From Planctomycetia bacterium (GTDB taxonomy: Bacteria; Planctomycetota; Planctomycetia; Pirellulales; Thermoguttaceae), in assembly GCA_030539295.1 (NCBI GenBank), contig JAUNSJ010000001.1, positions 1 to 64,000 on the forward strand: 64,000 bases of DNA, given 5' to 3'. This document shows, piece by piece, positions 7,771-62,854 of this stretch. A program made the translations under genes and the position numbers. Below the pieces are notes generated by a model. It searched no databases. It was not told where the DNA came from and was given only the letters and a program-made list of their open reading frames with translations. Every line of letters begins with the position of its first letter. Positions within the stretch are counted from its first letter, which is position 1.

Positions 7771-8024
7771 CAGAAAAGTAAATCTACAAAATAATATTCG
7801 TATTTAAGTCGACTTATTGTATTCTTATAATACACTAGCAAAAAAGACAAGTTACCACTAAGCCGGGGTCACCAGGAGCCGAAAAACGTGCGGCCACCTG
7901 ACAAAAGGGCGCGTTTACAAAAAAAGGCACAATAAATTTCCTCGGGACCGCGGTAGAACGAAAAGAGTATTGACTTAGGCTCGCCGAGTCCGTTACACTA
8001 CAGTTTTTCTTGTATTTACAGAAA

Positions 8025-8168
8025 GAATTTTCGCAAAAAACATTCACAAATGAATGGCTGATGATTGACATGCGATTATCGGTAGAGTAAAATGGAGGTA
8101 TGAAAACTATGCGTTGTAACCGAAACACTTATTTTACCCGGCTCCGGTCGCTCGGGGGATTCCCTGCT
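8025..8168 (+). repeat. Copy 1 of a ~143-bp direct repeat carrying promoter, RBS and the first ~23 codons of an ORF.
   Basis: Near-identical to 9633..9776, with a few mismatches. Contains TTGACA (8065-8070), a 17-nt spacer, TAAAAT (8088-8093), GGAGG, then ATG. Confidence 0.85.
8065..8093 (+). promoter_or_regulatory. Sigma70-like promoter (TTGACA-N17-TAAAAT) inside repeat copy 1.
   Basis: Read directly: ttgaca tgcgattatcggtagag taaaat, followed by ggagg and ATG. Confidence 0.55.
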
Positions 8169-8438
8169 TACAGGCGACAAAACAGCTATGTAGTCTGTAT
8201 TCAGCACAGTTACGACAACGCCGTCAGTCACACGTATCGAAACGACCCCGCCGTAGCCTGCCGCAGCCAGGTTTTCGACAAATACGACACCTGCGACGAT
8301 CGCTGTAACGTCATTATGCAATTAAATTCCATAATTTCCGTGTTGCGACAAATCTGTTGCGTGCCAGACTACAGACATAGTACTATGATCGGTAAGGGCC
8401 GCGACCAAATTATGACATGGCGCAAAGGATGGAGATGA
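8100..8438 (+). CDS. Small protein (112 aa). Its N-terminus MKTMRCNRNTYFTRLRSLG is shared with the ORF at 9708.
   Basis: Starts inside repeat copy 1 and diverges after about 23 aa. Possibly a degenerate toxin-tip paralog. Confidence 0.4.
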   Translation: MKTMRCNRNTYFTRLRSLGGFPAYRRQNSYVVCIQHSYDNAVSHTYRNDPAVACRSQVFDKYDTCDDRCNVIMQLNSIISVLRQICCVPDYRHSTMIGKGRDQIMTWRKGWR

Positions 8439-9517
8439 ATATGTCAAAGAGACCAGTGGTTACACTAGTACTGCTATTTATAATTTCCTCGATCACCATA
8501 GGGTTACTATGCCATTTGTACTCATGGAAAAACAGTGGGGGTACCGTTTCGCTTGTTATACCAAATCTTTCAGAGGAGCATGAATATCAAAAACAAAAAA
8601 AACTTTTGTCGCTTCTTGGCGAGAATAATTCTCAAATTCAGAATTCCTGTTTAAACCAAACGGAATTGTCCGACAAAGAGTATGTTAAACTTCTGGACCA
8701 GACTGTCAGTGAATTTCTCGATATTACAGGGAAAATTGAGAAGCCGTTGTTTTTCGGATTTCAAGAAGATGTTTCCAGATTATCGAATAAGACTGTCGTT
8801 GAGAATGCCCGGCGGTTGCGATGCCTGTACTACGAGGCGGAAACCTTAATTTTAACGTGTATCGCTGCGAAACAGTGTAATCTGGCATGCAATGTTCTTG
8901 ACTCTCTCTTTCATTTAAACGAACAGATTGAAGTCTGTGACTGGCATTCTCTTTGTATTCTCTGTGAAACTTCGGAAACACTTTTAAAGCTGACAAAACA
9001 GGTATCGTTGGACATGACCTTGGAACAAACCGTTGTTCTTGAGGAAAATATAAAATCCTTGCAAATATTACTTTCCAAATCGTTCGGATTTTTTATCCTT
9101 TCTGAAAGAACGAAATGTCTTTGTTACGTATCAGGTATGACCAGTAGCGCGACAAGACACCTTGCCGAAACACATAAAGATTCATTCATTTCCGAAATGA
9201 AAATACTGTTACAGTGGATTAATAGCCGGTTGAAGGATTCAAATTCCGTATTTCTATTAAGTAACTTTAAACCATGTTATTCTCAAGAGGAGACACGCGA
9301 GTACTTTTTGTCGCGTGCCATGCAATTATCTCCAGAAGAATGCTTTTTATCTTCAAGATATCACCTATATAAAATCGATACAATGTACTATCGCTGCATG
9401 AATATTATTGAAGAATGCATGCTCTATACCAATAACTCTCCCTTGTTTTTTAAGAGTGTTGATAAGATGCATGAAAACCAAGAATCAGAAACAGAGCAAC
9501 TCTCTGGCAACAGGTAA
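8417..9517 (+). CDS. Hypothetical Cys-rich protein with an N-terminal TM anchor (366 aa). Candidate immunity or partner protein.
   Basis: Sits in the AT-rich island. N-terminal hydrophobic segment VVTLVLLFIISSITIGLL; the probable start is the Met at 8444. No known domain. Confidence 0.45.
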   Translation: MAQRMEMNMSKRPVVTLVLLFIISSITIGLLCHLYSWKNSGGTVSLVIPNLSEEHEYQKQKKLLSLLGENNSQIQNSCLNQTELSDKEYVKLLDQTVSEFLDITGKIEKPLFFGFQEDVSRLSNKTVVENARRLRCLYYEAETLILTCIAAKQCNLACNVLDSLFHLNEQIEVCDWHSLCILCETSETLLKLTKQVSLDMTLEQTVVLEENIKSLQILLSKSFGFFILSERTKCLCYVSGMTSSATRHLAETHKDSFISEMKILLQWINSRLKDSNSVFLLSNFKPCYSQEETREYFLSRAMQLSPEECFLSSRYHLYKIDTMYYRCMNIIEECMLYTNNSPLFFKSVDKMHENQESETEQLSGNR

Positions 9518-9632
9518 TGTACTTTGAAAAGCGGCACGACAAATAAGCAGTCTTGGTGGCAATTCGAACAACAATTTAGGGTAAACACGTACCGCATCAA
9601 GTCAATCAAAGTCCTCTTGATGTTTTTGTCAG

Positions 9633-9776
9633 GAATTTTCGCAAAAAACTTTCACAAATTGACGATTTATGATTGACATGCGATTATCGGTAGAGTAAAA
9701 TGGAGGTATGAAAATTATGCGTTGTAACCGAAACACTTATTTTACCCGGCTCCGGTCGCTCGGGAGATTCCCTGCT
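9633..9776 (+). repeat. Copy 2 of the ~143-bp promoter/leader repeat.
   Basis: Near-identical to 8025..8168. TTGACA (9673-9678), 17-nt spacer, TAAAAT (9696-9701), GGAGG, ATG at 9708. Confidence 0.85.
9673..9701 (+). promoter_or_regulatory. Sigma70-like promoter (TTGACA-N17-TAAAAT) inside repeat copy 2.
   Basis: Same sequence as copy 1. Confidence 0.55.
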
Positions 9777-10277
9777 CGGAAACGCCAAAAAAATGTCAGC
9801 ATTTGCTCCGACTGCGTCTCAGATCACGACAGCACCTTAGACGATCGCTACACCTGCGCCACATTCTACGCCCTCAACCTCCTATTCACAGACAACTTCG
9901 CAACAAAAAGAATTTCAAGTGCCCACACCTTGACGAGAACCTTCGCCGGTCAGGTCTACGATAGAGAAGCCGGCATTATGCTCTACCGAAATCGGTATTG
10001 GCCTCGGACGCTGGGGCGGTTCGTGACAAGAGAGCCAATTGGGAATCAAGGGAAAGATATTAGTATTAATCGTTACGTTGATAACGTCCCGGTGAAGTCT
10101 ATTGAGGCGTTTGGCCTTAAGCTTCCCCGTGCTTCCAATATTTTTTACCAATCCTTGACTGCTTCGCGTCAGCGTTCCTCCCCTTTGGTCAAAAAGGTAT
10201 GCTTAGCACCGGCCCTGTTTATTATTTCACGTGCAACTGGTAAATGTGTTCAATCATTTAACCGAACAAAACTGTGA
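9708..10277 (+). CDS. Small protein (189 aa) containing an RHS-repeat-associated core motif followed by a ~50-aa variable C-terminal tip. Resembles an orphan polymorphic-toxin C-terminal module.
   Basis: FAGQVYDREAGIMLYRNRYWPRTLGRFVTREPIGNQGKDISINRYVDNVPVKSIEAFGL matches the RHS core consensus (..GQ.YD.E.GL.Y.RARYYDP.LGRF.S.DPIG..GG.NLY.YV.NNPVN..DP.GL). The N-terminal ~23 aa are encoded by the repeat. Confidence 0.6.
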   Translation: MKIMRCNRNTYFTRLRSLGRFPARKRQKNVSICSDCVSDHDSTLDDRYTCATFYALNLLFTDNFATKRISSAHTLTRTFAGQVYDREAGIMLYRNRYWPRTLGRFVTREPIGNQGKDISINRYVDNVPVKSIEAFGLKLPRASNIFYQSLTASRQRSSPLVKKVCLAPALFIISRATGKCVQSFNRTKL

Positions 10278-10292
10278 AGAGAAGGAAGTATC

Positions 10293-10895
10293 ATGGAAAA
10301 CGAAACCATTGAGCTTAAGGATAAAAATGGAGTCGTCCGAATTCGAATTGGTGTGTCAGAAGACGATGTGCCGGGCATTACGTTATTCGATGCGAACGCA
10401 AAGGAACGATTATCATTAAAACTTCAAAGGTTATCATCAAAAGTTGATGATGCCGGCTCACCATCTATTTACTTTTTTGGTAAAGATGGCGAAATGGCTA
10501 TCAGGCTTTGTCACAGGCCATTTAAAATTAACGATACTGAATATAACATCTCTGATATCGAAATCAGAGATCCTCATAGAGAACGAGTCCGAATGTCTTT
10601 GACTACGGGAATTACTGACCCGGAATATTCGCAGGGAGCGATAGGAGTGTATCAAAAAAACTCACTTCCTTACGCGGGGGTGGGATATCATGAAGTGGAT
10701 GGTCATTCCGGATCGGGATGCTCCATTTATTGTACCGAGCGTGGGACAGCAGGAATTCAAGTGATTGCAACTGAAACTTCGACTGATATACAACTATGCA
10801 ATCAAACGCACATTTCGTACATAAAGGATTCCAATGACTTTTCAAACGATGAAAAGACAGATGAAAACAAGAAACCAGAGAACCCAAAAGAATAA
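10293..10895 (+). CDS. Hypothetical protein (200 aa) immediately downstream of the RHS-tip ORF. Candidate cognate immunity protein.
   Basis: Position 16 nt after the toxin-tip ORF; AT-rich codon usage like the rest of the island; no known domain. Confidence 0.4.
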   Translation: MENETIELKDKNGVVRIRIGVSEDDVPGITLFDANAKERLSLKLQRLSSKVDDAGSPSIYFFGKDGEMAIRLCHRPFKINDTEYNISDIEIRDPHRERVRMSLTTGITDPEYSQGAIGVYQKNSLPYAGVGYHEVDGHSGSGCSIYCTERGTAGIQVIATETSTDIQLCNQTHISYIKDSNDFSNDEKTDENKKPENPKE

Positions 10896-11087
10896 ACACA
10901 AAGGGCAGACAACCGTTCAAAACTCCAGATTCATATTGGAATAAAGCGAAAGAGATGGGACTAGAGCGATCATGGAAGAATACCTTTGCTCTTTTAAGTT
11001 TAATAAAGAGACAAGCAAGTGCCTGGTGACCAACGTGGTCAAACAATCGAATTCTTCCACTTAATTTATGAGTATTAGGACAGAAAT

Positions 11088-11822
11088 ATGAAATACCATT
11101 ACCCCAATATTAAGGATGTTAAGCTTGTGTTGAGATGTTTTTGTAAATATATTTTATATGCATTGTTTATCTATTTGTCATTATACTTTTTATTAACAAT
11201 GCCATTTTCGCACCAACCTCGTGACGTAAAACGTAATATGACATGCCGAGTATACATGTTCAGTTTTCATGAAAAACCTATACGTGGTCCTTTTACTATC
11301 ACTCCTTATTTTTCCACAGAAGGGACAGAGACCGCTTATTATTTTTTTGGAGTTTTGGATAAGTTGTTATACACCTCATTCACAAGACCTTTTTGGGATC
11401 AACCCAGACAGTATCCCCCTGCGACATTTTCAAATTCGTCAGCTCAACCGTGTGAGACATCTACGGTTAACATGTTTTCCGTTTACTTTTGCTTATTTTT
11501 TCCGCTCCTTCATCTCCTTGTTGTGTGTATGAAACACCATAAAAAGCCCAAGGCAATTGAAATCTTTTACGTATTGCAAATAATAGCCTTGTTTATTTTT
11601 ATAGTATGGACTTGGCATCTCTTTTTTTCGTGGAAAATGAATGGCATATTAGTGTATAACTATATGGCTTGCACTCTTACTCTATTTGGTATTCACGCGA
11701 CAAAAATATACAAACAACTATCTTGTAGCATTCCGAGTATGGCAATAAGCATCTGCCCTGTGCTCTTGGGATGTTATATTGGCATAGGCGAAATGATTTA
11801 CTTTGTTATAATTCATCTTTGA
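11088..11822 (+). CDS. Hypothetical multi-pass membrane protein (244 aa).
   Basis: Several hydrophobic segments (ILYALFIYLSLYFLL, FSVYFCLFFPLLHLLVV, VLQIIALFIFIVWTWHLFF). AT-rich; no family recognised. Confidence 0.4.
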   Translation: MKYHYPNIKDVKLVLRCFCKYILYALFIYLSLYFLLTMPFSHQPRDVKRNMTCRVYMFSFHEKPIRGPFTITPYFSTEGTETAYYFFGVLDKLLYTSFTRPFWDQPRQYPPATFSNSSAQPCETSTVNMFSVYFCLFFPLLHLLVVCMKHHKKPKAIEIFYVLQIIALFIFIVWTWHLFFSWKMNGILVYNYMACTLTLFGIHATKIYKQLSCSIPSMAISICPVLLGCYIGIGEMIYFVIIHL

Positions 11823-12288
11823 TAAAAAAGCTTCTCTACCAAAATCTGTGGGTAACATTTGGCTCCGGGCAGATCGCCAGGTGCGTGTTATCACGCCATT
11901 TCCAACGATTTACAGGAGCCAAAACCATAACTTTTTCTGGTTTTTGAAGACATCCCCCTTGTAATCGGTTAGGGAATAGAGTATACTTTTTATGAAAAGG
12001 AACAGACACTGCCAGGCAGCAACCTGTCAGGGACCGTCGAACCAACGAAGGGACCACCCTTCCGACGTACAATCGGAAGAGAATTACCAACAGTCGGGGA
12101 CGACTTTGTTGCTATCCCCTAAAGGAATCGCCAAAATGGTCGTGCTCGGCTATTTTGGGGAGCCATTTCCGCTCACTGTTATCCATAGTTCGTAACAGAG
12201 AGCCTTTTTTCTTTAATCTTTCAGGTTAGCATTTTTCCTGGAAAGTGCAATTAAATAAGAAGTTACGATATCCAATGGAGATAACACA

Positions 12289-13770
12289 ATGTTTTATGAA
12301 TTAACAAAGACGAGTCGACCAAGCCGTTTTTTTGGCGGCGTAATATGTGTTATCACGTTACTGATAGCATCTGGGCTTTTGGCTGATTCTTTAGAGTGCC
12401 CTCAGCCAGAGAGCTCTGAAACGAAAACGGAGGCTTCCCATTCACAAGTCGGGCAGGTTGCGAACGTTCGTGACCCCGATAATGCTTCTATCGATACAAA
12501 ACTTGACGAGGAAATACCTTGTCTTGGCAATTCGGGGGTTGTAGAGGTACTGTCAGTCTTGAACGGAGACATCTCCGTAGAAGAGGCATCAAAAATGGTA
12601 CTTCAGCGTAAGGAACAAGACAGGAAACTTATCGAACAATATATTGATCAAGATATCGCTTTTTCACTTTCCTTCGCAGTATCTGATACGAATGATGAGG
12701 ATATTAAAAAACTTGCTGGAGCAACGAAAATAGTATCTCTGGATCTTTGGAACTGCAGCCAGGTAACAGATAAAAGCCTGCCACAGATTGCAAAACTCAA
12801 GAGTTTAACGAGTCTTAACTTGGAGGGAACCTCAATTACTAAACAAGGTTTACTCACTCTGAATTTGCCAAATCTTCGCAAGCTGAATCTGAGCCGTCAA
12901 GGACGTTATTACGATGAAGATATGGTTTTTTTCACAAAAATGCCACTTCTTGAAGAATTAATTTTAACCAAAGCTTCCTTGACCGATAAGGGAGTTAGTA
13001 ATCTCGCAACACTTAAACATTTAAAATTTCTTGCGGTCGGGGATCGTCCGAAAATTAAAGGGAAATGTATGAAAGACATTGCCGGGATACAATCTCTGGA
13101 GCTTCTCGGTTTGGAGGGATGTTGCCATTTAAAAGATGCTGCATTTGCCGAGCTTGTTTCAATGCCACATCTCAAAGTCCTCTGTCTCAATTGGACACAA
13201 GTAGGAGAAGAGGCGTTCACTCATTTTGGTCGTTTTCACGCATTGGAGCAACTCAATGTCGATAGTCCTAATATTACGGACTCCTGTCTAAAATCGTTAA
13301 AATCTAGTTCACGGTTGCGAGTGCTGCATCTTCAGGGAGGAAAAATATCTGATAATGGACTTGCGGAATTGACCTCGTTGCCTGCTTTGAGAACACTTTG
13401 TATTACGAATTATTCTGACATTTCCGATGAAGGTATTCAGTGTCTCGCCAAGATACCAAGTATACATAGTATTCTCTTCGATTCTTGTGAAAACATTACA
13501 GAGTCCGGAATTTCACAACTACAGCAAAAAATCCCTGACTGTGAGGTGCGCGCCATAAAAACTTATTGGCGAGATGCCAAAAAAGAAGAACGTGTGATGA
13601 GTTCTTTCTTTGTTGTACTGGCAATTATTGTTACGATACCAGGTATGATTATCTATCTTGTTGGCTGGAAAGTAACAAATTATTTAAGAAGAAAACGCCT
13701 CGACAGTTGTTCCTGTGTGTCCCAGAGGGTCGAAAAAACGGCGGGAGAGAAGGAGAATGGAAAAGAGTGA
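12289..13770 (+). CDS. Leucine-rich-repeat (Cys-containing, RI-like LRR) protein with an N-terminal signal anchor and a C-terminal TM helix plus a short basic tail.
   Basis: Repeating LxxLxLxxC/N units (LNLEGTSITKQGLLTLNLPNLRKLNLS, LELLGLEGCCHLKDAAF, LRVLHLQGGKISDNGL...). N-terminal VICVITLLIASGLLA and C-terminal FFVVLAIIVTIPGMIIYLVGW hydrophobic segments. Confidence 0.6.
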   Translation: MFYELTKTSRPSRFFGGVICVITLLIASGLLADSLECPQPESSETKTEASHSQVGQVANVRDPDNASIDTKLDEEIPCLGNSGVVEVLSVLNGDISVEEASKMVLQRKEQDRKLIEQYIDQDIAFSLSFAVSDTNDEDIKKLAGATKIVSLDLWNCSQVTDKSLPQIAKLKSLTSLNLEGTSITKQGLLTLNLPNLRKLNLSRQGRYYDEDMVFFTKMPLLEELILTKASLTDKGVSNLATLKHLKFLAVGDRPKIKGKCMKDIAGIQSLELLGLEGCCHLKDAAFAELVSMPHLKVLCLNWTQVGEEAFTHFGRFHALEQLNVDSPNITDSCLKSLKSSSRLRVLHLQGGKISDNGLAELTSLPALRTLCITNYSDISDEGIQCLAKIPSIHSILFDSCENITESGISQLQQKIPDCEVRAIKTYWRDAKKEERVMSSFFVVLAIIVTIPGMIIYLVGWKVTNYLRRKRLDSCSCVSQRVEKTAGEKENGKE

Positions 13771-14481
13771 GTCGCGTTTTTTACTGTTTTTTTCAATCGT
13801 TCTTCGATTCCCCCTATGAAAAAACTTTGTGCTCTTCCATTGATGCGAAGTGCCCAATAATGGAACCAGACAATAAATTACGGCCGATTTTCAAACAATG
13901 CGAACACTTGCTTTTTCCCCGTTCAGACTGATCTTTTCGTCCTAACGCGGCAAGACACGAAAGGTGCAAATTGATGCCGACCAACTAAATATACCACATT
14001 GACCATACGAGATTCGGAAGCTGCCGGAGAGCGAAAGAATTCAGGGGCGTAAGAGAATGTCTGAGATCCAGAGGCCCAGTTTTGACACATTGATTTGGAA
14101 AGGAGAGGAAATTACGTATAATAAAATAAGAGGATGAGTGAGGATAATCGCTTCACTCCGCAGAAAAACCTGATTACAGGTTTCAAAATGGGGGTGATAT
14201 AAGACACTTGTACTGTAACAAATCCCCCTTTGGGAGAATAAGTATTACCCTTAATATCCTCTACGATACAACACCATTTTTTGTCCAATGAACCGGGGCC
14301 ACTTAACCCATACATCAGGCTCAAACAAGTGAATACCAGAAATCGAGCAAGGCGTGCTGCTTGCCCATTGGGCTGGCGTTTTTCATTCCTCACCCTAGCG
14401 TGCGGCTCCCATCCTCAAGCGAACGAGCATCTCCGGACGTAGTGGCCTAACAGTCCGAGGTTTGTAAAAGGAATAAGAAGA

Positions 14482-15150
14482 TCAAAGCCTCCGACCTGCT
14501 TTGAGAAAGAATTCATAGACAGGAACAATCCTTCGAAAATCCTTTAATACAGATTTTGCAAAATTATTACTGAATAATCGTTCGAAATTTTCACTCTCGG
14601 CGATCAGGCAAATGTCTCTTCGATTAAGCCACATTTTTATATCCTGCGGTTGGTCCGGGAAATGGTCCCGCTTATAGATTTCCTCTGAAATTTGAAAGAT
14701 TTTTTGTTTATTAAAAGCGGTCAGCGCGTTTCGTGACACCTCGTCTTTTTTTATAATTGAGTCGCGCAACGAATTCATGACGCAGGTTCCTGGCATATAA
14801 AACCCGCACCCGTAACTATACTTCTCCGGCGCAATTTCGAGAAAGAAACCTGGCAGGCTGTGGTCGTCCGAGGTATGCGAACGCATAAAGCACGACCAGA
14901 CACTGCGATGGAAAAGTGATTTATTGTAGCAATATCGCATGTCACGATAAATTCGTGAAACCATACGTTTCGGCTCGCAACAGAAACTCCGGTCAATGGT
15001 CAACATGGCCGGAGTCAGTTCCGCCAGGAACTGATACATCGGTTCCAGAACAAATCGCTCGTACCGGTCCTTGTGCTCCTGATACCACTGGCGACTGTTG
15101 TGTCGTGTATTGTCGTCCAAAAACTTTAACGTTTCGACAGAAAATGGCAT
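14482..15150 (-). CDS. DUF2461 / TIGR02453 family protein.
   Basis: MPFSVETLKFLDDNTRHNSRQWYQEHKDRYERFV...RIYRDMRY matches the TIGR02453 N-terminal signature. RBS AAGGAG lies 9 nt before the ATG at 15150. The upstream ORF extension is rejected because it would overlap the protease gene. Confidence 0.7.
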   Translation of the reverse strand: MPFSVETLKFLDDNTRHNSRQWYQEHKDRYERFVLEPMYQFLAELTPAMLTIDRSFCCEPKRMVSRIYRDMRYCYNKSLFHRSVWSCFMRSHTSDDHSLPGFFLEIAPEKYSYGCGFYMPGTCVMNSLRDSIIKKDEVSRNALTAFNKQKIFQISEEIYKRDHFPDQPQDIKMWLNRRDICLIAESENFERLFSNNFAKSVLKDFRRIVPVYEFFLKAGRRL

Positions 15151-23612: not shown

Positions 23613-23746
23613 ACTTGTGTTCCTCTGTCTTGGTTCGTGAACTCGGAGGGATAACGGCGCCGCGTTTCACCTTGAAAAACGGCTTAATAACCGAAATCCT
23701 TCCACATTTCTCTATTTTACACGCTTTTCCCTTTCGTGTCAACACC

Positions 23747-32733: not shown

Positions 32734-33244
32734 GCAGTTTGCCTAACTCAATCGTTTTACACTTTCCAAGTTTTGTTGTCATGTCTCTGTCTCCTTTTCA
32801 AGGTGAAATTGAAAGTAAATTTTCGTGTGTTCACAAGCACATTTTGGCCGCACTGCTGCCAAGTTTCGTTTGTTTCGTTACGTTTTCATTTTGATTCTCC
32901 TCACAAGTCAAAAGTTTTCATGTTGACGAGAGACAAGTTTTTTCGTTGTCTCGGGCCTCGTTAAATTCAATCTTCTCACATTATAATACAATCGAAAGAA
33001 GATGTCAAACCAATTTTGCGAAAAATCGACCCTAATTTTGCGCAATTTTTTAGGGGTTAAATTGGGTACTCGTCCTTGTTTTTACGAGGTTTTCGTATAT
33101 TTTCGGGAGTGAGTCATAAAATCTGGGGCCATAAATTTTTTGTGAGCCCGAGGGCCGCGACCGACAAGGCAAAATCCACGCATCTGGCAATGAACTTGCC
33201 ACGGGGTGAATTCCGGGGCAAGTCCATTTCGGTAAAACGCAAAG

Positions 33245-36667: not shown

Positions 36668-36765
36668 TGAATTAAACCTCCTTATTAGTTTTTTAGTTTA
36701 AAAACACTTCCTTTTCAGGAACAATAGTGACATTATACCAAGCGGCGTCGGGCAAGTCAATTAAA

Positions 36766-36803: not shown

Positions 36804-37257
36804 GTCTTGTTTTTCGTCTTTAAGTGCTTGTTATACATTAGGATACATTGACTTTTGAGAGACGACAGATAGGTCAGGGAATCATCTGTCGGCATCGTGC
36901 CGGTTCGGTTTTGGTCCCGGAGCTGCGGTGTTCTTGCGGAGGAGTCGTGGAGTCCGCATAAAGGTACGGGTGCCGAAAAAACGCGGAAAAAACAATAGAA
37001 TATCGAAAATTTTTTGAATTACAGGGAATAAAGAACTTGACATAGAAACACGCGGCAAGTATAATGGAGATGTCAAGGTGGGGACCAGCATTGACAGCGT
37101 AATATGCCAGGAACAGATCGGACGGGGGAATTGTTTCCGAATGCTCAGAGTCCTGATACTCTACTGTCATATTTATTGGAATTCCACTTTCTGCTGTCAA
37201 TCACAGGAATATTAAGATCGCTACACGGAGCTGGATCGGGTTCCGTGCCATTGGGTC

Positions 37258-50260: not shown

Positions 50261-50514
50261 TACAAACCTATCTATTTTATCTATTATTCCCATTTTTTAT
50301 TTCTCGCATAAAAATTATCCCTTTTTTGCGAGGTACTGCGATTAAAATTCCCCTAAAATGTCTCAAAACAGCAGAAGTCCTCTAAACGCTACTGCCGATA
50401 TATTCGATAAGAATGCCCGTTAGATTAGAACCGCTTGGTCGAACCAGACGTGCAGGTTCCCGTATGCCTGTTTGGCCATGGATTTTTATCGCACTTTCCC
50501 ATGAAAGAGCCACT

Positions 50515-53500
50515 ATGAAAAAATCGACAATAGAAAAAGCGTCCAAAGTTCGTCGCAAGGGTACGCCAATTGGGCAACGTGGCAAGATGGCTATTACAAT
50601 GGCGTTGGCTGCGGTACTATTCGGAGCGGGCAATGCCTGGGCCGAGGATGGTTATCTTATCAAAAACGATGATGAGACCACGCATTATGCCTCGCTTTTC
50701 GAGGCCAATCCGAGCGACGGCGACTTAGTCATCGTCGCTGGCGGTAATGTGGAAGGCGGGGGCGCGATAGAATACACCTCCAGTACCTCCCCGGCCAGCA
50801 ACATAACCCTTCGATCGGACGACGATAACGTGGTTCGGAAAATCGACGCGGGCGGTACCGCACGGCTATTCTATTCCGATGTATCAGAATTTGCCCTGAC
50901 GCTCAACATTGCCAACCTGGAATTCACCAACGGGAACGGCACTTCCGGCGGATTGATTTACACACCAAGCTCCGGTGCGGTTACCATCAACGGCAGTAAT
51001 GCGTTTTTCACGAACAGCCATGCTTACGGCGGGGGAGTCCTATCCGCTGGTGTGGTCAATATTAGCGGTTCTAATACGTTTACCAATAACGTGGCAGAGC
51101 ATTCTATCGGTGTGCAGGGCGGCGCGATTTACGCCAGCAGTAATATTGTGCTTGAAGGAAAGCAATCCACGGCGATCTTCTCCGGAAATACTGTTACTGT
51201 AGGTTCAACCACTCATAGAAACGATATTTACGCGGAAAATAACATTACCATAAAGGACGGCGGACGATACAGCTTCGACGGTGGAATCACCACGGGGAAA
51301 GATTTTGACACCTTCACGATCCAGGACGGTTCCAACGTTATCTTTGGCACAAACAGTATTACGACTATTCAGGGAAAGACGCTTCTGGACAACGCCCATC
51401 TCACGATTCAAGGTTCCGATAGCACCACGTTTGACGTCGGCAGGCTGGAAATTGGGAAAGACAGCCAGAACTCCATCGTGTTTGAAAGCACGTATTCCAA
51501 CGAGGGGAGGACCGTCATGGAAGGCGAGAACCTTGTCTCCGCTCTGACCCAGGGCAACATGCAAATGTTCGTAAAAACCACTAAAGGCGACTTCGCGTAT
51601 ATTCGCGAAATTAGCGGCACGCAAGTCATCGTCAACGCCGTGGAAGAAGGAACGAGCACGTTCAATCTCGTGCGGGGCAAGGGTTTGGTCGAGGATTCTC
51701 AAATATACTATTTCGTTGGCTGGTCCAAAACCTTTGGCGGTCACTACTATAGTGCAACCCCGTCAGGAACGAAAACGATTCTGCCCGGCGATCGGATTGT
51801 TGTAACCGCAGACGGATACATGGGAACCTCCGAATTACCGAAATTCGGAGAAGACTTCGCCCTGTCGATTCAATCCAATACGAACGAAGTACGTACGATT
51901 ACCGCGGAGACCAAAACAGTCACGAAGGGTTACGGAAAAATCCTGACCGGTTACGGAAAAATCACGTTGAACCTTAGCCAGATTAAATTCGACAACGACG
52001 ATGTATCGAATACGGGTGCGTTTATCGTTTCAAATAGCGTCGTGGTGAACGGTTCGGGCGAGTTTGCCAATAATGATTCAAGCGGAGATAGCGGCGGCGC
52101 GATTACAGCAGACGATGCCGTTGAGCTGAACGGAACGATTCAATTTATGGGCGAAAAGGCGCAGACCGGACTGGCGTTCACAAATAACCGAGCAACCAGC
52201 GGCGGGGCAATTTCCGGCAATAGCGTAACGATTTCAGGTTCCAATCTTTATGTGTACGACGGAAAGAAAACGTATGCCAACACGTTCACGGGCAACGAGA
52301 TTAGCGGCGGCAGCGGCGGGGCCGTTTATGCCAGTGCCAGCGTAAGTCTTTCCGGCTCCAACCTGTTTGATAAAAACGTCTCAGAGAGCGATGGCGGCGC
52401 GATTTATTCCGGAGGAACCGTCTCGGTCTCCGGCGAAAACAAGTTCACCGATAATAAAGCGAGTACCGGGCAAGGCGGCGCGATTTGGGCTGCGAGCAAT
52501 GTGACTTTTTCCGACACGGACTCCACAACAACCTTCGCTGGAAACACAGCCAACGGCGTTAAAAACGACGTGTTCTCCCAGAACGGCAATATTACCTTTA
52601 GCGGCGGTACGTACATTCTCGGCGGCGGTTTGGTCGCGGACGGTAACCCTGACGACAAGAACAGTGGTATTATAAATGTCACCGGAGGAGCCTACGTTAA
52701 TCTTGAGGATGGAACCATATCCTCCGCCAGGAATTTGGTGATTGATAATAACGCGACGCTGGACATTGACCTGAACGCGAACAACAAGGTATCGGCACTC
52801 AACGCGGTGGACGTTGCCGACGGCGCGACCGAATTGTTCTTATCCGGAACCGGCTCGATAAACGAAGGCAATATGGATGTGTACCTTGAAAAAACCGACG
52901 GCATGACCAACGGTTACTACCTCGTCGCAGCCGGCAATTTTTCCGGGAACGATACCAGCAACGTGACACACAATAGCTGGGATTTCGCCGCAAGCCGCAT
53001 TTCCGCAACGGATACGGGACTCTATCTGGGCGTTCTGCTCAATGGGGGCGCTGTCCTGCGCAGCGACGCCAGCGGAACACTGAACGCGGCCGATACATTT
53101 GACGCCGTGTTCGAAGACGGCTTGGGCGCAGTGGCTACTGGCAATGTGATTACGATTAGCAATGACGTTCATGCGGAAAACGCCATTAATCTGAACGCAG
53201 ATGTCAATGAACTGACGATTCAGTCCGATGATTCGGCACAACGGCGAACCATTACGGCCACAGGCATTACCGGTCACCGATTCTTAAACTTTGAAGGGGA
53301 CTGCACGGTCAATACGACGAATATCATATTCGAGAACAGTGGAACTGATCTCGTCCAAGGCGGCGCGATTTTCTCGAACGGTAACCTGACGATCAATGGA
53401 ACTACGGAATTTAAGAATAACCAGGCTGAACTCGGCGGCGCGATTTACGCCGTAGGAAATGTCACGTTTGCCGAAGGATCCCATATAGATTTCAGCGGCA

Positions 53501-55206
53501 ATACAATGGGAAGCGGCGAGAACGAGACTCCGAACGACTTGTACGTTGCGCCCACACTCGGTGGTTCCAGCGTTATTACCATCGAAAAAGATGCGATCGT
53601 CAACTTCCACGGTGGTATCGATTGCGGAGCTGTTGGAAATACGTCGCTTGTCATTGACCAAGGTGCTCATGTTACGTTCAGCGACGACGCGACTGTCAAT
53701 ATCAGCGGCGAAATGCATATCAACTCGTCCGATGTGACCTTCGGTGACGACGTCGTGATGGATTTCCAAAACGGGGTCATCGCTGGCGTGAACGTTTCGC
53801 AGTCGTTGAGTGGGAATGTTTCGATTGCCAAAGAGCTGGGCGCGACGTTTGACCTTGAGAATAACAGTAACAGTTCTATTGACCTGCGAGACGCGAGTAA
53901 CGTAACGATCTCGGAGGATGTGGCCGTGAAAATCTACGATGACAACGGTAACGTGCTGTCCGCCAAAGATTTCAAGGGAAAACTTCCCGCCTCGGGCAAT
54001 ACGTGGACGCTGATTTACGGGAAAAACGACGCCCTGGCAAACGTGGGCGGCGAGGATGTCTACGAATCGCTCCTGTACAAAGTCCAACTTGGGCTGGACG
54101 GTCAGAACTTCGTGATAAAATCCGAAAAGAAAGATCTGCAACCCAGCGCGATAGAGCGCAACGCGGAAGCCGCGAGACAATTGTTCGGTGACGAGATTTT
54201 CGATGTTAAAACAGAAGACGAAGCAAGACTGGTCGTCAGCGGAGCCACCGGAGAAATCTATGCCTCGACGGCCAACGCTCAAGTTCAGCGACTGAATTAT
54301 CTCAATACGATGCTCGTAAACCGGCTCCTTGGCCATGAGGATTCGCAAGCGCGGGTCGAGTCAACGGTTCGAGGTCAGTGTGCCGAGCATTGCCCGGCTG
54401 CAAATCTCTGGGCCAGTGGTTACGGAATCGGTGGCTTTACGGACATGGACGGTTCTTACGTTGCCGGCTACGACTACAAAGCAGGCGGCATGCTCGCCGG
54501 GGCCGATTGGCAAGGAGCCAACGCGCAATGGGGACTCTTTTGTGGATATGGGCAGACCGGTATCGACGCGGCCAATGCCGATGTCCATTCGAAAGATACC
54601 ACGCTCGGTGGCTACCTCCTCTGGGACAGTCGGCTCGGAGGTGGGTATACGACTCTCCTTGGCAACGTTTCCTTGAGCGATGTCTCCGGAACCCGAACGA
54701 TTTCCGCCGACTCGTACGCGAACAAGTTCGATGCCCGACAGTCGTCCTGCTATCTGGAAAAGGGTTGGAAGTACGAGAATAACCTTGGAGTCATGGTTAA
54801 TCCTTATGGCGTTTTGCAATATATAGGCTACAACGCAGACGCTACGGGCGATGATGTCCTTGCCATCGACGAAGTCAACTACGATTCCTTGCGTACGAAA
54901 GCCGGAGTGCGTTTGGACCGGAATTTCTGCCGCAACGGGAATCTGTGGACGCTTTCCTCCGGGTTCGCCTGGAATCATGAACTGCTTGACACGAGTGCCA
55001 ATTTCATTGCCACAACCAACTTCGGAGGACAGCCAGTGGCGGCAACAATCTTCGGAAACGAGGCCGGCCGCGACTGGTTCGAATACACCGCGGGCGCGAA
55101 AGTGGCTTTGACAGAAAACGTCACGCTCTCCGGCGATTATTTCCTCTTCGTCAATAAGCGATCGACCCTCAATGCCGGTATGGGCACGCTAACCTGGCGT
55201 TACTAA
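50515..55206 (+). CDS. Giant autotransporter adhesin with Chlamydia-Pmp-type passenger repeats (GGAI / FxxN) and a C-terminal autotransporter beta-barrel.
   Basis: Signal region MKKSTIEK...MAITMALAAVLFGAGNAWA. At least 8 GGAI(Y/W/F/S) repeats with FTNN/FTDN/FKNN/FDKN motifs. C-terminal beta-barrel (LWASGYGIGGF...GMGTLTWRY, terminal aromatic). The 50413 start is probably upstream of the real one. Confidence 0.85.
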   Translation: MKKSTIEKASKVRRKGTPIGQRGKMAITMALAAVLFGAGNAWAEDGYLIKNDDETTHYASLFEANPSDGDLVIVAGGNVEGGGAIEYTSSTSPASNITLRSDDDNVVRKIDAGGTARLFYSDVSEFALTLNIANLEFTNGNGTSGGLIYTPSSGAVTINGSNAFFTNSHAYGGGVLSAGVVNISGSNTFTNNVAEHSIGVQGGAIYASSNIVLEGKQSTAIFSGNTVTVGSTTHRNDIYAENNITIKDGGRYSFDGGITTGKDFDTFTIQDGSNVIFGTNSITTIQGKTLLDNAHLTIQGSDSTTFDVGRLEIGKDSQNSIVFESTYSNEGRTVMEGENLVSALTQGNMQMFVKTTKGDFAYIREISGTQVIVNAVEEGTSTFNLVRGKGLVEDSQIYYFVGWSKTFGGHYYSATPSGTKTILPGDRIVVTADGYMGTSELPKFGEDFALSIQSNTNEVRTITAETKTVTKGYGKILTGYGKITLNLSQIKFDNDDVSNTGAFIVSNSVVVNGSGEFANNDSSGDSGGAITADDAVELNGTIQFMGEKAQTGLAFTNNRATSGGAISGNSVTISGSNLYVYDGKKTYANTFTGNEISGGSGGAVYASASVSLSGSNLFDKNVSESDGGAIYSGGTVSVSGENKFTDNKASTGQGGAIWAASNVTFSDTDSTTTFAGNTANGVKNDVFSQNGNITFSGGTYILGGGLVADGNPDDKNSGIINVTGGAYVNLEDGTISSARNLVIDNNATLDIDLNANNKVSALNAVDVADGATELFLSGTGSINEGNMDVYLEKTDGMTNGYYLVAAGNFSGNDTSNVTHNSWDFAASRISATDTGLYLGVLLNGGAVLRSDASGTLNAADTFDAVFEDGLGAVATGNVITISNDVHAENAINLNADVNELTIQSDDSAQRRTITATGITGHRFLNFEGDCTVNTTNIIFENSGTDLVQGGAIFSNGNLTINGTTEFKNNQAELGGAIYAVGNVTFAEGSHIDFSGNTMGSGENETPNDLYVAPTLGGSSVITIEKDAIVNFHGGIDCGAVGNTSLVIDQGAHVTFSDDATVNISGEMHINSSDVTFGDDVVMDFQNGVIAGVNVSQSLSGNVSIAKELGATFDLENNSNSSIDLRDASNVTISEDVAVKIYDDNGNVLSAKDFKGKLPASGNTWTLIYGKNDALANVGGEDVYESLLYKVQLGLDGQNFVIKSEKKDLQPSAIERNAEAARQLFGDEIFDVKTEDEARLVVSGATGEIYASTANAQVQRLNYLNTMLVNRLLGHEDSQARVESTVRGQCAEHCPAANLWASGYGIGGFTDMDGSYVAGYDYKAGGMLAGADWQGANAQWGLFCGYGQTGIDAANADVHSKDTTLGGYLLWDSRLGGGYTTLLGNVSLSDVSGTRTISADSYANKFDARQSSCYLEKGWKYENNLGVMVNPYGVLQYIGYNADATGDDVLAIDEVNYDSLRTKAGVRLDRNFCRNGNLWTLSSGFAWNHELLDTSANFIATTNFGGQPVAATIFGNEAGRDWFEYTAGAKVALTENVTLSGDYFLFVNKRSTLNAGMGTLTWRY

Positions 55207-56710: not shown

Positions 56711-56739
56711 TTGACAAAACTTGTTTTCGGAGATATAAT
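56711..56739 (+). promoter_or_regulatory. Perfect consensus sigma70 promoter (TTGACA-N17-TATAAT).
   Basis: ttgaca aaacttgttttcggaga tataat, read directly, 39 nt upstream of the ATG at 56778. Confidence 0.6.
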
Positions 56740-59021: not shown

Positions 59022-59182
59022 ACAGACCGCCTGTTTTCTTTTTCTCAAGTTCACGTTGACACGGACGGAAAGAGCATGTATAATCTTTTCGTGGTGACTG
59101 CTGTCGGGCAGAGCTGGTCAAGAGGCGGCTCGACAGAAAAACCGAAAGCTGAAACCGTGACAACAAGAACAAAGGAGAAAAG

Positions 59183-62476: not shown

Positions 62477-62854
62477 GCAAGTTGCCTGGTTATGGGATTA
62501 GGTTAAGGTCGACAATAGGACAACACAGTTCCTGTTGCTCTTGCCTCCTTGATGCTCGTTGGAGAAATGCCGCGTTTGCAGTTTTCATGTATCATTGTAC
62601 CAGAAATTCTTCCTTTATCAACAAGGCGGAAGAGATTACCTCGAAAGACAACCGAGCGACAAATTTAACGCACTCTTGACGTCGCGGCGAGGAGGGCTTA
62701 TAATAATAGTTACCGAAGAAAAAATTATATTATGCGGTCAACAATCATTTTCCAGCGTTCGTGCCTGATTCCAATTAAGAATCAGGCTAACCGGGGCATA
62801 ATAGGGCGTGAAAATGAGTACAAGTGAAACATCAGAAAGTAGGGAGTCTGCGAA

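Follow-up and report, generated by a model that had tools for sequence, protein, structure and literature searches.

Orphan rhs genes, like the related cdiA-CT/cdiI orphans, are best described in the Enterobacteria, where they occur as 5'-truncated fragments, each ending in a variable tip and followed by a small gene, and where they form tandem arrays in compositionally atypical DNA, the individual members keeping differing lengths of upstream sequence (Poole et al. 2011, PMC3150448; Koskiniemi et al. 2014, PMC3967940). Classical orphans of this type generally lack initiation signals of their own and are cotranscribed from the main gene, their immunity genes are expressed, and the arrays are believed to expand through recombination at shared sequence (PMC3150448). 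In Salmonella, a conserved promoter (P2) is located upstream of 50 or more distinct Rhs toxins, inside the core-encoding DNA just upstream of the PxxxxDPxGL motif; rapid amplification of 5' cDNA ends (5'-RACE) and reporters showed that it allows autonomous expression of toxin and immunity genes, in a manner resembling type II toxin/antitoxin systems (Starsta et al. 2020, PMC7043789). Here, we describe two tandem cassettes related to these systems, which were found in a stretch of 64,000 nt (referred to below as the window; contig JAUNSJ010000001.1 of assembly GCA_030539295.1) from the metagenome-assembled genome (MAG) of an uncultured member of the Planctomycetia. Each cassette starts with the same short, promoter-bearing direct repeat. 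We consider it likely, with a probability of about 0.65, that two orphan rhs C-terminal cassettes, both 5' truncated, are decaying here as an array within a low-GC island and that the repeat is their shared 5' end, which survived two different deletions.

The similarities to the enterobacterial arrays are extensive, as they include the 5' truncation of the fragments, the variable tip, the small gene after each fragment, the tandem arrangement, the atypical base composition, and the differing upstream lengths. Unlike in those arrays, no full-length rhs gene is present in the window, the DNA shared by the cassettes is their 5' end rather than core-encoding sequence, the fragments have an ATG and a promoter-like site of their own, and their toxin parts are visibly degraded. 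Comparably to the Salmonella P2 modules, a sequence with a putative promoter is repeated in front of different Rhs tips and would permit expression without a full-length gene. However, the putative promoter of the second cassette (9673-9701) is located about 220 nt before the core and, thus, upstream of all Rhs-derived coding sequence, directly on the ATG; moreover, the Salmonella tips are toxic, whereas the tips found here look defective. The initial annotation of this region regarded the arrangement as undescribed, a view that does not hold, given the conserved promoter known in front of more than 50 Rhs tips in Salmonella (PMC7043789). What does set the locus apart from described systems is the position of the promoter and the lack of a main rhs gene in the window. 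In all, we regard the locus as an orphan-rhs/immunity island in decay that is ordinary apart from a few variant features, and not as a new way of expressing tips.

The two copies of the direct repeat, at 8025-8182 and 9633-9790 (both on the plus strand), share 90.5% identity over 158 nt in a pairwise alignment and lie 1608 bp apart. Within the 145-nt repeat core (8025-8169), 93.1% of the positions are identical to the other copy, but this identity is distributed unevenly: it is 81% over 8025-8061 and 97.2% over the 108 nt from 8062 to 8169, where two blocks, 8062-8106 (45 nt) and 8109-8156 (48 nt), are perfectly conserved. Each of these blocks has exactly two matches in the window, compared to none in 100 shuffles. 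Beyond the core, identity drops to 44% (8000-8024) and 39% (8170-8200) in flanks of 25 to 31 nt. The 5' half of the repeat is AT rich, and its 3' half codes in frame for the first part of an open reading frame (ORF). In an independent Logan assembly of SRR24915786, contigs break inside the repeat, as expected of a true repeat in a de Bruijn assembly. Outside the window, a 26-nt exact probe taken from the repeat core had no match, and leader-peptide patterns found no relative, among GTDB species-representative genomes and JGI metagenomes, two collections that do not include the source MAG. A structured RNA or riboswitch was ruled out as an explanation of the repeat, since the region had no Rfam match at E values of up to 1 and the fold z-scores of the first 83 nt of the two copies (0.71 and 0.09) did not point to unusual stability.

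Four ORFs, of 112, 366, 189, and 200 amino acids (aa), follow the repeats, just as the initial annotation had it, and its assignment of the second cassette to the Rhs family, as a core with a short tip, proved correct. ORF189 (9708-10277, plus strand) consists of the leader encoded by the repeat, the last part of an Rhs shell, an Rhs-associated core, and a tip of 52 aa. Its residues 73 to 136 (nt 9924-10115) pass the TIGR03696 (Rhs_assc_core) model with 42.3 bits against a cutoff of 32.5 (E = 7.7e-11), residues 78 to 136 can be aligned with the C-terminal core of Rhs proteins of known structure (PDB 8qja, 7q97, and 7pq5), and planctomycete Rhs fragments align to 9831-10139 in tblastn searches. 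A Pfam search of ORF189 returned no RHS match, which, taken literally, is one of the outcomes that the initial annotation had named as refuting it; the core assignment itself stands by virtue of TIGR03696. Neither ORF189 nor ORF112 matched the YD-repeat and shell models PF05593, TIGR01643, and PF25023. Among 5.8 billion proteins, ORF189 had no relatives other than four short Rhs fragments, which came from Planctomycetia and metagenomes. Copy 2 thus has the defining features of an orphan rhs gene, namely, a 5'-truncated fragment (9831-10139) that continues into a divergent, low-GC tip.

The first cassette is less transparent. ORF112 (8100-8438, plus strand) had no Pfam or NCBIfam match, including TIGR03696, and its direct homology to ORF189 beyond the repeat is marginal (p = 0.06 for protein and p = 0.03 for DNA). 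An exhaustive HMMER search of 1.8 billion proteins yielded one meaningful match, with an E value of 6e-8, and this match (P0009; MDO5554050.1, locus tag Q4G68_09825) is encoded on another contig of the very MAG that contains ORF366 and ORF200. A second match, P0010 (517 aa; E = 4e-6 summed over five stretches, 32% identity), was treated as spurious; this protein is proline rich and has five internal repeats similar to VMEKYVTGxNKSAVVMRRIRD, and its similarity to ORF112 is probably repeat-inflated chance.

The paralog Q4G68_09825 starts with the same leader (MKTTHHSHNTFFSRLWSLGRFSAHKRRN...), and its residues 1 to 68 match window positions 8100-8303 in the ORF112 frame (49% identity, E = 1e-15), so that homology continues 45 codons beyond the repeat. 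Residues 64 to 180 represent an Rhs shell (BLASTP E = 6e-16 against a planctomycete orphan), and residues 184 to 230 match the core DNA of copy 2 at 9880-10020 (57% identity, E = 5e-11), in a frame shifted by one relative to ORF189. The frameshift in the paralog comes right behind DRYNYNAF, the counterpart of DRYTCATF in ORF189, and the protein has no TIGR03696 match. Since Q4G68_09825 and the cassette are colinear all the way from the leader to the core, leader, shell, and core belong to one ancestral cassette, of which the two window copies keep complementary parts: copy 1 retains only a 5' shell remnant, recognizable through the paralog, and in ORF189 about 90 aa of shell remain, about 127 of the codons present in Q4G68_09825 being absent. 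The description of ORF112 as unrelated to Rhs, therefore, cannot be maintained, and neither can the view of the module as a discrete promoter/leader unit. Instead, the module is read from this comparison as the intersection of two different deletions rather than as a unit grafted onto unrelated tips. The relationship between ORF112 and ORF189 could be established only through this third, more diverged paralog.

We therefore propose a paralog family of at least three members. In its ancestral unit, an AT-rich stretch would have supplied the sigma70 promoter; the ATG would have opened a leader of about 27 codons, followed by about 150 aa of Rhs shell, with the Rhs-associated core and a variable tip behind it and at least one small gene further downstream. 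Copy 1 has lost everything from around shell codon 69 to the end of the tip, and in copy 2 about 127 shell codons are missing right behind the leader; the repeat of 145 to 158 bp at the cassette 5' end is the only DNA still common to both. For the 97% tract (8062-8169) within its 81% flank, the most likely source is recent gene conversion or a recombination event between the copies, not constraint on the leader. Indeed, there is no sign of special constraint on the leader peptide, since the leader is no better conserved between ORF112 and Q4G68_09825 (15 of 28 residues identical, counted from the alignment) than the shell that follows it (18 of 40) and since each of the three substitutions by which the window leaders differ is nonsynonymous.

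The promoter-like site of the repeat, TTGACA-17-TAAAAT, matches the sigma70 consensus at 11 of 12 positions and is identical in both copies, where it occupies 8065-8093 and 9673-9701 (plus strand). Directly downstream of the -10 box, the order in both copies is GGAGG, T, ATG; the -10 hexamer ends at 8093 and 9701, respectively, and the ATG starts at 8100 and 9708, leaving a gap of 6 nt that is filled by GGAGG (8094-8098 in copy 1). A census of the window for TTGACA-(16 to 18)-TATAAT sites with at least 11 of 12 matches returned 10 sites, compared to 0.87 expected from shuffles, all with a 17-nt spacer and four of them perfect. The eight sites outside the repeat, which are located on the minus strand at 2559-2587, 23714-23742, 32980-33008, and 36732-36760 and on the plus strand at 37037-37065, 56711-56739, 59056-59084, and 62676-62704, all lie 44 to 310 nt upstream of co-oriented long ORFs. 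Because such sites are both enriched and placed before genes in the window, the site in the repeat is probably genuine too, and near-consensus sites of the sigma70 type are very likely a genuine kind of promoter in this genome. By the same census, near-consensus sites appear to be real promoters in this organism, and the cassette promoter is probably active as well. As a side observation, this MAG seems to use very canonical TTGACA-17-TATAAT promoters.

The idea that promoter and GGAGG both serve the ATG had to be abandoned: since there are 6 nt between the -10 box and the ATG, the GGAGG is outside the transcript of this promoter. The predicted transcription start, the seventh base after the -10 box and a purine, would be the A of the ATG or a base beside it, which would result in a leaderless mRNA. 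A search for a Salmonella-like promoter inside the core-encoding DNA of ORF189 revealed no site with 10 or more of 12 matches; within ORF189 as a whole, the only hit (9885-9913, just upstream of the core) reaches 9 of 12.

While the promoter looks intact, the toxin parts are read as decayed. ORF189 aligns to the region of the Rhs/TcC aspartyl autoprotease that contains the catalytic dyad and the cleavage motif, at the C-terminal end of the cocoon (RhsA of P. protegens, PMC8765631; PDB 7q97, 8qja, and 7pq5), and in RhsA both aspartates of the dyad are required for release of the tip (PMC8765631). Unlike those proteins, ORF189 has Glu109 and Glu133 (in the motifs REPIG and PVKSIEAFGL) in place of the two aspartates, PVKSIEAFGL in place of PxxxxDPxG[WLF], no cocoon, and no N-terminal delivery domain. 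Both aspartates are kept in all four of its closest homologs and in the aligned solved Rhs cores. Additionally, the tip (10122-10277) measures only 52 aa, with a GC content at third codon positions of 0.35, has no homolog among 5.8 billion proteins and no Pfam or NCBIfam domain, and scores no better for codon usage in its own frame (-0.255) than in one alternative frame (-0.221). Copy 1 lacks core and tip altogether, the third paralog is frameshifted, and none of the three can form a cocoon. ORF189 is not annotated in the MAG, as evidenced by the consecutive locus tags of ORF366 and ORF200, and the sequences of ORF112 and ORF189 are absent from a collection of 15 billion proteins.

These observations bear on the reading that had originally been suggested, in which the tips are functional and autonomously expressed. 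In its most explicit form, this would be a miniature toxin/antitoxin pair similar to the Salmonella Rhs-CT/RhsI modules, in which ORF189 is made inside the cell, its core, with a Glu-Glu variant of the dyad, either releases the 52-aa tip or acts uncleaved, and the product of ORF200 or ORF244 neutralizes it. Such a pair would account well for a near-consensus promoter of the type that marks real genes in the window, for an ATG at the ideal distance from the predicted start, for an ORF189 that is intact and passes the Rhs-core model, and for a downstream gene that is close by and has its own ribosome-binding site; furthermore, autonomous expression of orphan Rhs tips has experimental precedent (PMC7043789). 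However, the replacement of both catalytic aspartates, the short tip without homolog or domain behind a shell of about 90 aa that cannot form a cocoon, the unremarkable codon score of the tip, the lack of any known intact member in the family, and the occurrence of ORF200 homologs without Rhs partners all make us consider a working toxin unlikely. Because the toxin parts are defective, the promoter at most drives the downstream genes: its present role, if any, would be transcription through the remnant into ORF366 and, in the second cassette, into ORF200 and ORF244.

Whether these downstream genes are immunity genes, as their position had suggested, is a separate matter. ORF366 (MDO5552120.1, Q4G68_00030), at the immunity position of cassette 1, extends from 8417 to 9517 on the plus strand as a 366-aa ORF and is annotated as a 358-aa protein (8441-9517), the ATG of which (8441) lies 2 nt beyond the stop of ORF112. 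The 358-aa form has one predicted transmembrane segment (residues 2 to 29), an N-terminal anchor; the gene has a GC content of 0.38, and its product has no Pfam or NCBIfam match and no homolog other than itself among 5.8 billion proteins. A single-sequence structure model was unusable (predicted local distance difference test [pLDDT] score of 38). ORF200 (MDO5552121.1, Q4G68_00035; 10293-10895, plus strand) follows ORF189 closely, with its own ribosome-binding site, and takes the immunity position of cassette 2. Its structure model, built from a three-sequence alignment, was unusable as well (pLDDT of 36). A TGA and five codons lie between ORF189 and ORF200, which share a reading frame, and one could imagine a single gene split by an in-frame stop. 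This was ruled out, since the ORF200 homologs P0006 and P0007 (48 to 51% identity) begin at the same methionine, with similarity starting about 15 nt before the ATG. Neither ORF200 nor these two homologs had a Pfam or NCBIfam match, and the neighbors of P0006 and P0007 are housekeeping genes or small ORFs and not Rhs fragments. Finally, ORF244 (11088-11822, plus strand), a multipass membrane protein with about four hydrophobic regions, a GC content of 0.35, and no Pfam or NCBIfam match, is possibly part of cassette 2; it adjoins ORF200 on the independent Logan contig, too. Position and low GC content make an immunity role for ORF366 and ORF200 plausible, and we would regard these two, along with ORF244, as plausibly retained orphan immunity genes.

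The surroundings of the ORF200 homolog P0006 (169 aa; L005 10001-10839) vary between metagenome contigs (L005 to L010). In L005 and L006, the gene is accompanied by a 62-aa ORF that is located downstream on the same strand, and a 57-aa ORF takes this position in L007. In L008 to L010, such a small ORF is situated directly upstream of the gene on the opposite strand (partly cut in L010). This neighborhood could be rearranging or invertible.

A different role for the repeat would be that of a recombination handle, a patch of homology for the capture or exchange of tip/immunity cassettes, where a circular or incoming DNA that carries the module integrates by a single crossover and leaves direct repeats on either side of the insert; core DNA plays this part in classical arrays. 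The two repeats do flank a compositionally foreign segment that includes ORF366, the 108-nt tract of 97% identity in an 81% flank, with an abrupt loss of similarity beyond, is the pattern that recombination leaves, and orphan arrays are thought to grow in this way (PMC3150448). Nevertheless, Q4G68_09825 reveals that the ancestral homology ran far beyond the module, so that deletions alone explain the short length of what is now shared. Moreover, no gene for a recombinase or mobile element was seen near the cassettes, where the flanking ORFs, including a 400-aa ORF upstream, had no Pfam or NCBIfam match, and only two local copies of the repeat exist. We therefore find a dedicated handle quite unlikely. 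A more far-reaching version, which we consider a rather long shot, would hold that Rhs C-terminal cassettes of Planctomycetia are self-contained, each having its own strong promoter on a leaderless ATG and a fixed 5' boundary that serves as homology patch, independently of any full-length rhs gene, and that the window contains two worn examples of what is still an intact system elsewhere in this genome or in related ones; if true, the module would be an expression signal and a recombination site at once. The possibility that the repeat is the end of an insertion sequence (IS) or a miniature inverted-repeat transposable element (MITE) with an outward-facing promoter, brought up in the initial annotation as an outcome that would overturn it, is largely refuted: the repeat is short, AT rich in its 5' half, repeated, and promoter bearing, but no terminal inverted repeats or target duplications were found at its ends, similarity fades at both edges without a recognizable element end, the window contains only two copies, the 26-nt probe had no exact match in the two collections mentioned above, and the 3' half is an in-frame ORF start with paralog homology that continues 45 codons past the repeat.

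The reading that we prefer, a decaying array of orphan cassettes, has weaknesses of its own. The proposed gene conversion is deduced from only about 10 variable sites. The replacement of aspartate by glutamate is a conservative change, and ORF189 might have kept some protease activity. For ORF200, the homologs known from elsewhere show no linkage to Rhs genes, and none exist for ORF366, so that position is what points to an immunity role. Lastly, ORF112 is open up to the start of ORF366, and its frame has a better codon-usage score than the other two, meaning that some translation or coupling may still be under selection.

The closest family of Rhs-core sequences, with 50 to 53% identity to ORF189, is found in another planctomycete orphan array (GCA_965347715.1; L004), which similarly consists of tandem Rhs fragments, of about 250 to 464 aa, each followed by a small ORF that often encodes an N-terminally membrane-anchored protein. 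Unlike the cassettes in the window, the fragments of L004 share 300 nt of core DNA at 79 to 88% identity, keep both catalytic aspartates, and have recognizable toxin domains but no near-consensus promoter upstream. One of them, a 320-aa fragment at 1285-2247, ends in a PLA2G12-like (phospholipase A2) domain (PF06951). The 464-aa orphan of the same array was also used to evaluate whether the leader is itself diverged shell-coding sequence, on account of the resemblance between FSQKTF and the FVSKTF at the start of that orphan; this resemblance was not distinguishable from shuffles (p = 0.27 to 0.59), and a relation between the Q4G68_09825 leader and the N terminus of the 464-aa orphan was unsupported (p = 0.34). 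In yet another planctomycete locus (L003), an isolated Rhs fragment (P0003, 292 aa; 9956-10879) resides beside housekeeping genes, and the 10 kb upstream of it contain no full-length rhs gene; its Rhs homology begins 45 nt before the annotated start. In this planctomycete group, it may be common for orphan Rhs fragments to stand alone.

The cassettes are part of a low-GC island (about 7800-14500) with a GC content of 36 to 44%, compared to 51 to 56% on both sides. Judging from the locus tags of ORF366 and ORF200 (Q4G68_00030 and Q4G68_00035), some six genes come before position 10000, and the window probably begins at or close to the start of its 358-kb contig. Within the island, the Rhs-derived parts have a genome-like GC content of 0.49 to 0.55, whereas the tails, the tip, and the downstream genes range from 0.35 to 0.44, a split that fits Rhs cassettes. 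ORF112 by itself illustrates this, as its GC content is 0.55 in the shell remnant (8171-8303) and 0.42 in the tail (8304-8440). The low values are shared by ORF366, the ORF189 tip, ORF200, ORF244, and a leucine-rich-repeat protein of 493 aa (12289-13770), located in the same island, that has N- and C-terminal hydrophobic segments. The earlier statement that the window, about 8 kb of which lies upstream of the cassettes, contains no full-length rhs gene was borne out by protein and tblastn searches, and tblastn with planctomycete Rhs fragments detected no other Rhs-like sequence in it. The large ORFs of the window are unrelated to Rhs and encode a met-zincin, a GH2 glycosidase, an autotransporter, histidine kinases, RlmL, and an ABC transporter. 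Among these, a 1597-aa protein (50413-55206, plus strand) combines an autotransporter beta-domain with a Chlamydia polymorphic-membrane-protein repeat, which fits a member of the Planctomycetes-Verrucomicrobia-Chlamydiae group.

Although of modest importance, the locus documents the decay of orphan Rhs cassettes in a little-studied phylum, with the toxin deleted or inactivated and the promoter and possibly protective downstream genes left intact. It also calls for caution in the reading of repeats, as the short module looked designed only because two deletions had removed the other shared DNA, and it took a third, diverged paralog to recognize the deletions behind it.

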